From the NCBI GenBank assembly GCA_963754655.1, contig CAVWGN010000001.1:1248001-1312000 (forward strand): a DNA stretch of 64,000 bases, written 5' to 3'. Of the stretch, positions 1,524-60,852 are shown piece after piece. Position 1 is the stretch's first letter. Each line of letters begins with the position of its first letter. Under the pieces are notes generated by a model. It made no database searches. It saw nothing but the letters and a program-made list of their open reading frames with translations, and had not been told where the DNA came from. This DNA comes from an uncultured Chlamydiae bacterium (lineage in GTDB: Bacteria > Chlamydiota > Chlamydiia > Chlamydiales > Parachlamydiaceae). The translations under genes and the position numbers were made by a program.

Positions 1524-1799
1524 ACCTAGCTTTTGAGTGATCTTTAACATTTGTTTAAGTTGATGACATTGAGAAGAAGATTTTGGAACTCGCACAAGCT
1601 GTCAAGAATCCGGAAGTCGTGGAGCTGATTCTCATTGGGGTCTTAATCACTCACCTTACGTAAGCGAAGTCAAAGAATCAGCGCTATCCTTTAAATAATC
1701 AAATAGCTTGATTTGTTTAATAGCCGGAAAGGCTTCAAATAAAAATAGCCCAGAGCGAAGCGGCGCGGCGACTGAAGGCGTTGCGTAGCCTACGCTCAT

Positions 1800-1819
1800 T
1801 TCTTAGCTTGATGCTTATG
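1800..1819 (-). mobile_element. Orphan IS4-family (IS231-like) terminal inverted repeat
   Basis: Reverse complement CATAAGCATCAAGCTAAGAA resembles the IS231 IR as I recall it (CATGCCCATCAACTTAAGAA). It abuts GGGCATCGCCC (1820-1830), which fits GGG(N5)CCC. Confidence 0.55.
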
Positions 1820-1901
1820 GGGCATCGCCCTGGGTTAGACTGGCCATTGTCATGTAGTCTAAAGGACTATAAGAGAATCATCTAATCCCAAGCATGTTTT
1901 C

Positions 1902-2215
1902 ATCTGGGAGTTTATATTTTTAGCAGATCGATACGAAATGGTAGAGCGGCGGTAGCCGCTTTTAGTGGGAAGCCCCGTATGAAGCGAGCTTGCGAGCGGA
2001 ATGCGGGGTGGGTATCAATAAAATATAAACCGCGGAAGCGGTGTGAGTGATCTTACGCTTACGCTGCTTCCGCAGCTCAATCCTATGTTGCCTACACCCC
2101 GCATTCCGCTCGCAAGCTCGCTTCATACGGGGCTTCCCACTGAAAGCGGCTACCGCCGTCCTACCATTTCGTATCGATCTGCTAAAAATATAAACTCCCA
2201 GATTTAATCGCATCC
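1902..2215. mobile_element. Palindromic element 'B', copy with truncated left end, nested in element C
   Basis: Arms of ~110 bp are near-perfect inverted repeats (ATCTGGGAGTTTATA...GAATGCGGGGTG). Near-identical to 44780-45099 in the opposite orientation. Confidence 0.9.
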
Positions 2216-2508
2216 TTGCAAGTGAGTGAGCTACAATCTCTCTTGTAGTCTTTCAGACTACGATATGGGTGTTTTTTCCCAGGCCGCTGGCCTTGGCTAT
2301 TTCAATTTAGAGCCCTTCAGGCTCCGACGCATAAAGCTAATGCAACGCATTGTATGCACATGCCTGAGTTCAATCATGGAATGTTTTGATCAAAGACTCA
2401 ATTTTTTGAATCATCTGCGTAAGGTAGGTTAATCATGAGGATGAAGAAGATTACAAGTAAAAAAAAATTGATTTCACATTTGCTATTCTTCTTTGTTTCT
2501 TGATCTAT

Positions 2509-2538
2509 AAGGGAAAGAGTTTGCTTTCCCTTTTTTTT
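2509..2538 (+). terminator. Intrinsic terminator (duplicate of 7916-7943)
   Basis: AAGGGAAAG-agtttg-CTTTCCCTT followed by a T run. Confidence 0.7.
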
Positions 2539-57924: not shown

Positions 57925-58093
57925 TATAAAACTTAGTTTATATTGAAGGAACTTAAATTTGAATTAACCTCAGTAGAAAATTAAATGGAAAAAATAGAGC
58001 TAATAAGCGAAAATTGGTCTGATGGGTCATTTGGTATGTGCATATACGAAGAATCATCCACTTATATAGTCTGAGATTAAAAGAAGTATCGGC

Positions 58094-58915
58094 ATGGATT
58101 TTCAAGCTTTTTCATTTATTTTCAATCGATCACTCGCTTTCACCTTTTCTAGAAAGAAGTTGCTATTTGTTTTTTGTATACTCGCTTTGAGTGGATTACT
58201 CGTCGTTTTTTTTAGAGGAATCGCTTTGCACGCTGGACAATGGGTGAAGTTAAGCTTGACCTTTCTTCCCATTTTCATTTGCACAGGAATTTTGTTGTCG
58301 ATGGGAATCTTGCTCATTCGTATTTATCATGATGAAATTAAACAGAGAGAGGTCAATTACTGGCATACGCTCTCTCGTTCTTGGGAAGTTGCCATCGGAG
58401 CTTCTTATTTTGCTATCCCTATTATTTTTAGTTATCTTCTGCTTTGGGTTTTGTTAGGCATTTTCGTGCTCTTGAGTGAAATTCCAGATGTAGGAGAATT
58501 TTTTAGTGCTATTCTCGCTTTTGGCCCTTTTATTATTAATCTTGGCACCCTTGTATTATGCGTTCTTAGCTTGGCCATTCTATTTTTTGTGGCTCCTTTA
58601 ATTGCTCTTAAAGGTTTAGAAGGAGCAGCCATCTTTCAGATGGCTATTAAAAAATTAGAGAAAGATCCTTTCGCTAATTTCGTTCTCATTCTCGTTGCTT
58701 TGCTTCCTCTAGTAATTATCATCTCTTTACTTCTACTAGCAGCGATAATGGCAGGATCCCTTGGTTTAGATTGCCAAACTTCACTCCAAACCATTCTCAA
58801 ATGGTTCTTTATCATGGTGCCATTTACCGCTTTTCTTACACCCGCAGTGATTTTTTTCTTTAACTTTGCTGCAGAAGCGCATGTTCTTATGCAAAAGCGA
58901 CTCAACAAGTCGTGA
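58094..58915 (+). CDS. Conserved multi-pass membrane protein
   Basis: About 6 TM helices, ending FFFNFAAEAH. Confidence 0.75.
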   Translation: MDFQAFSFIFNRSLAFTFSRKKLLFVFCILALSGLLVVFFRGIALHAGQWVKLSLTFLPIFICTGILLSMGILLIRIYHDEIKQREVNYWHTLSRSWEVAIGASYFAIPIIFSYLLLWVLLGIFVLLSEIPDVGEFFSAILAFGPFIINLGTLVLCVLSLAILFFVAPLIALKGLEGAAIFQMAIKKLEKDPFANFVLILVALLPLVIIISLLLLAAIMAGSLGLDCQTSLQTILKWFFIMVPFTAFLTPAVIFFFNFAAEAHVLMQKRLNKS

Positions 58916-59226
58916 ATTGATTGTCAGACCTTTAATCAAGCATAGGTTATACTCACTTTATGCATATGCTTTCGGCCTTGTTCACCGTAGGTTAGAAATA
59001 GCCATCTGAAGTTTTGCAAAATTAATTAATTCAAGTTGAGACAAGTCTTAGAGCGTTCATTATATGTGAATTTGGCATGGTTCAATTGAAGGTAACATGT
59101 TTATGCCGTCCTTTCAGGACTCGATGTCTTTTTGATAGAACCCAGGCCTCCGCTTCGCTGTGACCTGGGCTGTAACATTGACGGCCCTTCAGGCCTTAAC
59201 AAAAAGATGATTTAGGGATTATAGAA

Positions 59227-60551
59227 GAGTTGTGTCAAGTATTATGTGCAAATTGGTAAGAGATCTCATTAGGTTAAGCTATTTTTTCAACGCTCAGTTG
59301 TTCTTGTTTCTTTTGCTCTTTTAATAGATCCATATTTAAATATCTTTTATCTACCCATCCCTCATGAACCTCAACTGCAATTGCTAATATCAATCTTAAG
59401 CAACTCTCTTCATTTGGAAAAATTCTAATAACGTGTGTTCTTCTCTTAATTTCTTCATTTACTCTCTCGAGTAAGTTCGAACTTTTTAAATGCTTATGAT
59501 GTTGTTTTGGAAACTGGTAAAACGTTAATGTCTCAAAAATATTTTCCTCCACCCATGTACATAACTTTGGATACTTCATCATCCACTTCTCTAGCCACAT
59601 ATTCAAATCTGTTTTGGCTTCTTTAATATCCTTTCTATCATAGATCCATCGCAATTCTTGTAAGCAATCGTCGTTTGCTTTTCTTGGTAAATAATCAATT
59701 GCATTTCTTAAGAAATGAACATAACATCTTTGCCAAGGGATTTGATAAAATACTTCCATTATCGCTTTCCTAAGCCCTGCATGCTCATCACTAATAATCA
59801 ACTCAACTCCTATTAATCCTCTTTCTTTCAATCTCAATAGAAAATCTTTCCAACTATTGTGAGATTCTCGATTTGCAATTTCCACTGCTAATACTTGCCT
59901 GTAACCTTCTCCATTCACACCTACTGCAATTAATATAGCCTGCGATTTTACTATCCCATTTTCTCTAACTTTCTCATAACGAGCATCTACAATTAGATAA
60001 GGATAAACTTCTGTCAATTTTCTATTTGCAAACTGCTTTAAGTCCTCGTCCAAGCTCTTATTGATGTTGCTTATTGTCGTCGCTGAAAATTCATGTCCGC
60101 AAAGTTCTTCTGTGATTGCCTTCACTTTCCTGGTTGATACTCCTTGGACATACATTTCTGCTAGAGCTGATACTAATGCTTTTTCCGATCTTTCATATCG
60201 TTCAAAAAGCTCGGTAGAAAACATTCCCTCTCTGTCTCTTGGTACTTTTAGCTCTATATTGCCTATTCGCGTCACTAAGTGCCTTGTATAATAACCTGCT
60301 CTATAGCCTTTTCTTTCTTTGGATCTTTCACTCTTATTTGCTTCCAAAGTCTCGATCATTTCGGCTTCTAAAAAATTTTCGAGAGCAGTTTTCATAAGAG
60401 ACTTCATTAAATCAACATCTTGTTCAATAACTTCTTTAGATAATTTGTTTTTCTCAATAGAATACTTTTTGGTCATGGTATACCTCTTTTTGTAGTTAAT
60501 AAGAGATCATCTTACCATGACCTTTTTTTGCACATAATTTTTTACACAATC
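59227..60551 (-). mobile_element. IS256-family insertion sequence
   Basis: Imperfect IRs (GAG)TTGTGTCAAGTATTATGTGCAAA / TTTGCACATAATTTTTTACACAATC. TTATAGAA(G) is duplicated at 59219 and 60552; the empty loops of the 12088 and 32971 copies carry this site once. Confidence 0.92.
59274..60476 (-). CDS. IS256 family transposase
   Basis: LKVPRDREG.F.TELFERY, EMYVQGVSTRKV, DARYEKVR, IISDEHAGL, WQRCYVHFLRN, SSNLLERVNEEIKRRT.V.RIFPN. Confidence 0.97.
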   Translation of the reverse strand: MTKKYSIEKNKLSKEVIEQDVDLMKSLMKTALENFLEAEMIETLEANKSERSKERKGYRAGYYTRHLVTRIGNIELKVPRDREGMFSTELFERYERSEKALVSALAEMYVQGVSTRKVKAITEELCGHEFSATTISNINKSLDEDLKQFANRKLTEVYPYLIVDARYEKVRENGIVKSQAILIAVGVNGEGYRQVLAVEIANRESHNSWKDFLLRLKERGLIGVELIISDEHAGLRKAIMEVFYQIPWQRCYVHFLRNAIDYLPRKANDDCLQELRWIYDRKDIKEAKTDLNMWLEKWMMKYPKLCTWVEENIFETLTFYQFPKQHHKHLKSSNLLERVNEEIKRRTHVIRIFPNEESCLRLILAIAVEVHEGWVDKRYLNMDLLKEQKKQEQLSVEKIA

Positions 60552-60852
60552 TTATAGAAGAGGGACTTAAACCTCTCTTGTTAAGGCCTGAAGGGCCGTC
60601 ATGCTACAGCCCAGGTCGCAGCGAAGCGGAGGCCTGGGTTCTATCAAAAAGACATCGAGTCCTGAAAGGACGGCATAAACATGTTACCTTCAATTGAACC
60701 ATGCCAAAATTCACATATAATGAACGCTCTAAGACTTGTCTCAACTTGAATTAATTAATTTTGCAAAACTTCAGAAATAGCCATCCTACGGAAAACATCA
60801 ATGAGTCAATCTATTTCCCTTCTTTTACTGAAAGAGAAGATAATAGAAAGTT

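Follow-up and report, generated by a model that had tools for sequence, protein, structure and literature searches.

Gene-less palindromes of a Parachlamydiaceae genome as probable composite miniature elements: ends of Y1 HUH transposons inside the ends of DDE insertion sequences

The DNA analysed here, referred to as the window, is a 64-kb stretch of the 3.16-Mb genome (two contigs) of an uncultured bacterium of the Parachlamydiaceae. Its palindromes belong to a population of hundreds in this genome that contain no genes and in which three-hairpin ends of Y1 HUH transposons lie inside the ends of several unrelated insertion sequences (ISs) of the DDE type. [quoted passage not shown] The palindromic elements of the window are real and far beyond chance. 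Inverted arms at the predicted window loci are 69–136 nt long with 95–100% complementarity, and sequences matching the window loci form 438 merged clusters genome-wide (122,677 bp, ∼ 3.9% of the genome). An earlier prediction, made from the letters of the window (the original prediction), had placed the palindromes at six loci; the palindromes stand, but the count does not, since we find seven loci with 25314–25754 and 32921–33285 added. One composite, together with its inserted IS and upstream flank, is found twice, at G000:C1:8129–10073 on the chromosome and terminally on the 35-kb contig (C2:34010–35310). Element centres (core arms or spacers) are tandemly amplified at G000:C1:372475–373142, 484105–484925 and 1766805–1768346, in the manner of bacterial interspersed mosaic elements.

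Three core families, A, B and C, had been predicted to share one architecture, and each folds as single-stranded DNA in the expected order of small, bulged GC-rich and small hairpin (z −2.8, −2.6 and −3.7 respectively). In a decayed core-A copy at 2640–2733 two of the three hairpins fold (z −1.3). Inspection by eye showed a tetranucleotide foot before hairpin 1 of core B (1941–1944) and none at cores A or C. Seven full-length and two partial Y1 HUH genes match PF01797 in the genome. One full-length gene (L001) is of the IS200/IS605 type (subclass 1.1); in the other six the tyrosine motif is that of subclass 1.2 or differs from it at one residue, and a hairpin module adjoins each gene. L002, L003, L004 and L005 fit subclass 1.2 in full (DH[IV]H, WQ, Y-x3-Q-x2-HH, short tail), and L006 and L007 are one motif residue off its signature. 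Identity among three aligned copies is 36–49%, and L003 and L005 form a near-identical pair. A search for intact tnpA genes flanked by the cores, proposed with the original prediction, found core A around L004, a pair resembling core B around L002, and core C at L003 and L005 (the left arm with a portion of the right one); two further cores, D and E, adjoin L006 and L007. The predicted Y1 HUH origin of the hairpin units is borne out by these flanks, but the enzymes belong to subclass 1.2 and are not REP (repetitive extragenic palindrome)-associated tyrosine transposases (RAYTs): the Y-x3-NP motif is absent from these Y1 proteins, which score 22.6–25.2 bits against NF047646 (cut-off 80). Judged by sequence, all three core families represent ends of Y1 HUH elements of subclass 1.2. 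Inverted doublets of the cores form long hairpins and the same repeat flanks a Y1 gene, as in systems of REP doublets (REPINs) and RAYTs.

Homologues of the Y1 proteins (E ≤ 1e-25) occur in 31 of 300 genomes of the phylum. Of 30 Y1 loci in relatives, the gene is spanned by an inverted repeat of ≥ 60 bp in 16 and by one of any length in 21; core-A-like doublets outside the shells described below were found in three genomes (G015, G016 and G017). An Rfam scan at the gathering threshold gave no match. Below that threshold, core-A arms reach 36.4 bits (E 3e-5, gathering threshold 37) with Acido-Lenti-1 (RF01687), and the match covers the central and first hairpins of core A and of related cores beside tnpA. 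One intact Y1 gene (L017, G000:C1:2939095–2939976) sits within a long inverted shell of few copies; no duplication was seen there.

The shells, as far as matching ends can identify them, are ends of DDE insertion sequences. Partners were sought for shells C2, A3, A1, A2, B, X and A4, and the suggested search for ISs with matching ends yielded autonomous or decayed DDE elements for the first six and, weakly, for A4. Shell C2 (locus 1) corresponds to the ends of a 1155-bp IS701 in another genome, G002, where six forward ends pair with six reverse ends and the duplication is 6 bp; its transposase scores 345 bits with NF049921 (cut-off 250), and a search of 50 genomes found the end motif in 21. 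Shell A3 (locus 7) is the 3′ end, present on both arms, of a decayed IS701-like element in the genome of the window (L379, C1:500735–503254). The gene of this parent is broken and interrupted by an ISAs1-like piece, and three fragments match NF033540 (best E 1.8e-10); the element also holds a further transposase-like piece. Candidate A3 partners elsewhere, one match in 50 genomes and one in the genome collection, were both judged to be chance.

The two end types of A1 (loci 3, 5 and 7), a and b, match both ends of elements encoding DDE proteins of 475–522 aa that distantly resemble ISH6 and IS256, with both ends present at L199 and at L319 and one at L315 and L316. These transposases lie below the NCBIfam cut-offs (ISH6 39 bits vs. 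240, IS256 34 vs. 150), which indicates likeness and not membership. Shell B (loci 1, 4 and 6) matches the ends of an ISKra4-like element in G079; the second open reading frame (ORF) of this partner alone gives 135 bits against a cut-off of 205 (E 3.7e-39), with ISKra4 as best family. A2 (locus 5) matches the ends of an uncatalogued transposase family in G143, G098 and G209 (3 of 19 loci), and X (locus 4) those of an intact-looking member of the same family that occupies a core-C hairpin in this genome. For A4 (locus 2) an end in G280 precedes a 28-aa IS1634-like start, a weak match (E 0.061); a search for A4 ends in 50 genomes gave six single matches in five genomes, of which just two, both in G280, are shell-like. 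Shells without a core, relevant to whether shell and core are separable, exist in other genomes with duplication lengths unchanged: a 151-bp A2 MITE with a 9-bp duplication (G009, three loci), A1 MITEs with 8 bp (G079 and metagenomes) and a 170-bp B MITE with 9 bp (G079).

Target duplications follow the shell. In a genome-wide pairing of ends, with expected counts taken from swapped flanks, duplication length goes with shell type, as had been proposed. Shell B has an exact 9-bp duplication in 11 of 24 copies and in 15 of 24 when one mismatch is allowed (0 expected), X has exact 9 bp in 13/42 (1.5 expected), C2 has 5–6 bp in 5/8, A4 has 5–6 bp in four of five paired copies, and the G shell is flanked by TA in 62/69. 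Eight paired A3 ends gave 6 bp in four cases, 7 bp in one and 10 bp in one, and of 19 free A1 copies five still have an exact 8-bp duplication. Within the window, the predicted duplications of 5 bp (1649–2429), 8 bp (12088–12395) and 9 bp (44780–45099) can each be read in the sequence. That of 10 bp at 59006–60774 is also present, but it is not typical of its shell, 6 bp being usual in that family. The TA proposed for 2599–2940 did not survive: the letters are there, but inside a longer shell that starts at 2587, and TA as the target duplication of this locus was rejected, given the 5–6 bp of its family. A comparison of 30 relatives around 31900–33700 for orthologous empty sites found none close enough at the DNA level. 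One public DNA run, of low depth over the region, showed no joints and does not bear on the question.

Core A is found with shells that duplicate 8, about 9, 6 and 5–6 bp. Shells are filled almost throughout, with a core in 24/24 B elements (306–325 bp), 100/102 A1 and 78/80 A2, at near-constant sizes and at unrelated sites. Of 106 core-A doublets, 105 have at least one shell end and the remaining one keeps inner shell sequence, so that DDE ends most likely drove the spread of core A, and the composites most likely move as units via their shells. Near-constant filling, with a single doublet lacking detected shell ends, favours a single capture in each family and subsequent spread by DDE enzymes over separate filling of empty MITEs. 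The proposal that HUH-derived doublets in DDE-type MITE ends move as composites is supported to this extent. Of the predicted two-tier organization the nesting holds but the number of tiers does not, as shells nest in shells and complete ISs land in cores.

In many shells one IS end is present in two copies, an arrangement that simple capture leaves unaccounted for: A1 exists in a-b, a-a and b-b forms, and both arms of A3 come from a single IS end. Both arms of an element share rare variants in 24/38 cases for A2 (0.56 expected), 10/20 for B (0.73 expected), 10/21 for C1 (1.32 expected) and 3/16 for G (0.38 expected). Such mirroring points to copying from arm to arm, probably by template switching or conversion within the fold-back, by analogy with quasi-palindromes.

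The uncatalogued transposase matched by shells A2 and X, and by a 10-bp stretch of the C1 end, has 11 ORF copies in the genome and no sequence match in Pfam, NCBIfam or PDB. Among 8000 candidates scored, the family has 51 matches including itself, and members occur in 16 of 300 genomes. A structure predicted for the protein (predicted local distance difference test score 90.4) is closest to Hermes (Z 14.9, root mean square deviation 5.5, 329 aligned), the P element (Z 11.6) and ISCth4 (Z 11.1); D68, D142, E340 and a DxxH motif are invariant. On this model the family has a predicted RNase H DDE fold with a helical insertion and is IS256/Mutator-like by structure, not by sequence. A comparison with the A1 partner gave no detectable close kinship (hhalign probability 2.4%). 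The gene consists of two ORFs, a short one for a coiled coil and a long one, overlapping at an A-rich run (L011:274–582 and 651–1970; L380), which suggests programmed frameshifting; some homologues of 520–590 aa are in one frame.

Among ten paired copies of this family, nine are flanked by an exact 9-bp duplication, and the target is mostly the GC-rich central core hairpin. Other ISs also lie in the repeats, according to counts made by eye: core A's third hairpin holds all 11 copies of an IS1182/IS5-like element, and a repeat is present on at least one flank of IS256 (8/8), one IS5 type (7/7) and IS481 (8/8). The IS1182/IS5-like transposase (L010:336–1463, 375 aa) is below all NCBIfam cut-offs, and ten of ten paired copies have a 7-bp duplication. 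Unlike the DDE families, two IS607 families with TnpB (three and eight tnpA copies; L016, G000:C1:1224248 and others) lie mostly outside the repeats.

Two other accounts of the same arrangement turn on which layer moves. MITEs might have spread first, with Y1 enzymes then adding core doublets locus by locus, as safe sites, so that the layers are nested and not co-mobile. ISs and shells do sit in core hairpins, the G shell holds several different cargos, and the core-free MITEs of other genomes have the same ends. However, if shells had been filled independently, some would be expected empty and the junctions would vary, and the near-constant filling and sizes of the B, A1 and A2 elements count against it; we regard this account as unlikely. 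Alternatively, the subclass-1.2 Y1 enzyme itself could move the whole fold-back, with the shells as passive captured flanks. Y1 genes flanked by terminal inverted repeats (TIRs) have been described as TIRtrons (PMC3733652), intact tnpA genes lie within shells at L002 and L004, and the mirrored variants would suit a single-strand hairpin intermediate. Yet IS200/IS605-type enzymes are described as giving no larger duplication (PMC2817692), whereas here duplication length tracks the DDE family of the shell and not the core, and bare core-A doublets are nearly absent. Movement by the Y1 enzyme is, on this balance, very unlikely.

The cores could also be structured RNAs useful to the host, of the Acido-Lenti-1 type, or terminators under selection, with mobility incidental. 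The score of the core-A arms just under the Acido-Lenti-1 threshold would agree with this, and the motif has been graded 'probably RNA' (PMC2864571). The module, however, flanks tnpA as inverted pairs in many genomes and is found at lineage-specific insertion sites, often broken by ISs, which makes a host function highly improbable as the explanation.

Several points weigh against composite MITEs spread by DDE transposases. The case for movement is drawn from sequence. For A2, an exact 9-bp duplication is found in 2/80 copies, with 1.9 expected (15/80 with one mismatch). The link of A4 to IS1634 is a 28-aa fragment, and no A4 end was found at six loci matching the IS1634 model, five in other genomes and one here. 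Transposases of the A1 and B partners were not found in the genome with one query or model each, and its IS701-type transposases are fragments alone. C1 occurs only within G-type flanks, and 23 pairs lack an exact duplication, so that its independent movement is unsupported; its 10-bp match to a transposase end also resembles the region of the tnpA stop codon. No flanking inverted repeat of any kind was detected at 9 of the 30 Y1 loci of relatives, and a polishing artefact in palindromes could produce part of the mirrored-variant signal. Because partners are absent or fragmentary in this genome, the A1, B and IS701-type composites are either fossils or used enzymes that are now lost, and much of the spread probably lies in the past, given the missing A1 and B enzymes.

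For composites amplified through their DDE shells we propose the following course. First, a Y1 element (or two of its arms as an inside-out doublet) would enter an IS or MITE without a target duplication, and tnpA would then be deleted in most head-out copies. The cognate DDE enzyme would amplify the composite; such an enzyme is present for shell X and for the C1 end, and absent or decayed for A1, B, C2 and A3. Arm-to-arm copying, probably by the fold-back route above, would turn a-b into a-a and b-b forms and keep the arms identical. The uncatalogued family of Hermes/IS256 fold may prefer the 9-bp GC-rich palindrome of the central hairpin, which would add further layers and nested palindromes.

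The seven loci of the window are built as follows. Locus 1 (1649–2429) is an IS701-type C2 shell enclosing a head-out pair of core C, within which lie a core-E remnant and a nested B element; its 5-bp duplication is at 1644–1648 and 2430–2434. The left arm of core C has three hairpins (1722–1869, + strand), the central one interrupted by a core-E fragment (about 1752–1822) of the type known from the L007 flank. The right arm (2246–2323, − strand) is the module found beside tnpA at L003/L005. Between them, the nested B element (1902–2215) has an ISKra4-type shell with an eroded left tip and contains a core-B pair, the left arm at 1945–2042. A paralogous copy of the host sequence (7769–8022, + strand) provides an empty site for locus 1 near 7840, with a single copy of the target, and holds just the first ∼ 27 bp of the locus-2 shell. 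Locus 2 itself (2587–2947) is an A4 shell (IS1634-like, weak) that has lost its right tip, with core A at 2644–2728 (+) and 2816–2895 (−). A remnant of the 3′ end of tnpA lies between the two arms, at about 2773–2807. Over the last tnpA codons, core and shell, locus 2 runs colinear with the 3′ part of the L004 element, the Y1 element of core A, and so is an internal-deletion derivative of it.

At locus 3 (12088–12395) an inside-out core-A doublet lies between the differing ends a and b of the ISH6/IS256-like DDE element (A1 shell), with its 8-bp duplication at 12080–12087 and 12396–12403. Locus 4 (25314–25754) is a chimeric remnant made of a B shell with truncated core B, a core-D/Y arm, an X mini-element (about 25504–25650), a core-C hairpin and a C2 shell end. 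Locus 5 (32921–33285) has a core-A doublet with end b on both sides (32971–33285), preceded by a one-sided A2 shell (32921–32970); no target duplication is left at this locus. A reading of that shell (32920–32970) as captured host DNA was rejected, as the shell corresponds to ends of the uncatalogued family; just before it lies sequence resembling an IS5-type end. Locus 6 (44780–45099) is a complete B element, with ISKra4-type ends around a core-B pair and a 9-bp duplication. In locus 7 (59006–60774) an A3 shell, with arms at about 59006–59073 and 60707–60774 from one IS701-like end used twice and a 10-bp duplication, encloses an A1-shelled core-A doublet (59074–60705). The centre of this doublet is occupied by a complete IS256 (59228–60551, − strand) with its own 9-bp duplication; its transposase ORF (59274–60476) encodes 400 aa (PF00872 E 2e-143, NF033543 over cut-off).

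Among the neighbouring genes, 25858–27081 (− strand) and 6767–7870 (+ strand) encode charged low-complexity repeat proteins with related units of 111 bp and about 90 bp, the first with weak KGG/LEA matches. The 3′ region of the second gene is duplicated at 1573–1649 and 2435–2614. This gene lies among menaquinone-type genes (chorismate-binding, crotonase, AMP-binding) at 3035–11966. A PDZ_4 and S41 peptidase is encoded at 31091–32902, which we take to resemble a CPAF-type protease.

A wider reading is possible and is put forward tentatively. Subclass-1.2 Y1 elements may be a REP-generating lineage whose three-hairpin ends (Acido-Lenti-1) escaped their own enzyme at least five times into DDE ends; one IS end might then suffice for fold-back copying to build new MITEs, and the loop could be closed by DDE families with cores as their targets, giving a self-building repeat ecosystem of several families. 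The composites would offer REP-like repeats a route to multiply without an HUH enzyme of their own, and a single IS end with arm copying would be a route for the birth of MITEs. Subclass-1.2 Y1 proteins, published as lacking REPs, gain candidate substrates, with several enzyme–core pairs in one genome that bear on the open question of how REPs spread. A role as DNA is indicated for the orphan Rfam motif Acido-Lenti-1, the function of which is still described as unknown in the text of a preprint (bioRxiv 10.64898/2026.10.21.760802). A further gain is an uncatalogued DDE transposase with targeted insertion, accompanied by a natural mini-element.

Each ingredient is already known: REPINs, MITEs, REP-targeting ISs and composites of mini-elements. 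In open-access text, with ISfinder outside the scope, we found neither repeated capture across transposon classes nor a single catalogued MITE family that accounts for both parts; the supplements of PMC6006769 and PMC3733652, outside the comparison, may list some of these flanks. The Y1 genes share with TnpA-Y1 subclass 1.2 (Quentin et al., 2018, PMC6006769) the HUH and WQ motifs, Y-x3-Q-x2-HH, a length of ∼ 150 aa, the short C-terminal tail and low identity between copies. The article text describes that subclass as mostly from Cyanobacteria and Bacteroidetes, with no REP and generally no terminal structures; by contrast, the genes here have inverted three-hairpin ends and hundreds of gene-less copies. 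These flanking modules extend the published description and do not exclude membership.

TIRtrons (Di Nocera et al., 2013, PMC3733652) are similar in having long inverted repeats around Y1 genes, dimer families and some fusions of REPs to unrelated sequence. They differ in that their enzymes are mostly of subclass 2.1 and their outer parts have no stated DDE origin, and the terms 'target site' and 'duplication' are absent from the article text. Acido-Lenti-1 is filed as a small RNA of unknown function and not as a transposon end, and the core scores just under its cut-off. REP-targeting ISs such as IS1397, IS621 and IS1594, as described in PMC3184786, likewise insert into palindromic repeats, but here repeats are also enclosed by IS ends, and a concentration in the repeats is seen for at least five IS families, one of them without a Pfam or NCBIfam model. 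As in DDE-dependent MITEs and TIME-COMP mosaics (PMC3184786, PMC4133298, in the parts that treat them), the elements are non-coding with IS-matching ends and a fixed duplication length, and two mini-elements can carry the DNA between them, here X-core D-X. Unlike those MITEs, the cargo consists of the ends of another transposon class, at least four DDE families are involved, and near-perfect fold-backs are nested several layers deep. With the REPIN–RAYT system or REPtron, according to the accounts in PMC3116915 and PMC2817692, the cores share inverted GC-rich hairpin doublets, hundreds of copies, compensatory changes in the arms and a tie of each family to a low-copy Y1 HUH gene flanked by that repeat. 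The differences are that subclass-1.2 enzymes take the place of class-2 RAYTs, that the unit has three hairpins and ∼ 90 nt, and that core-A doublets are nearly all in DDE ends with target duplications. Functionally, this is a MITE population with REPIN-like cargo; by enzyme class it is not a RAYT–REPIN system.

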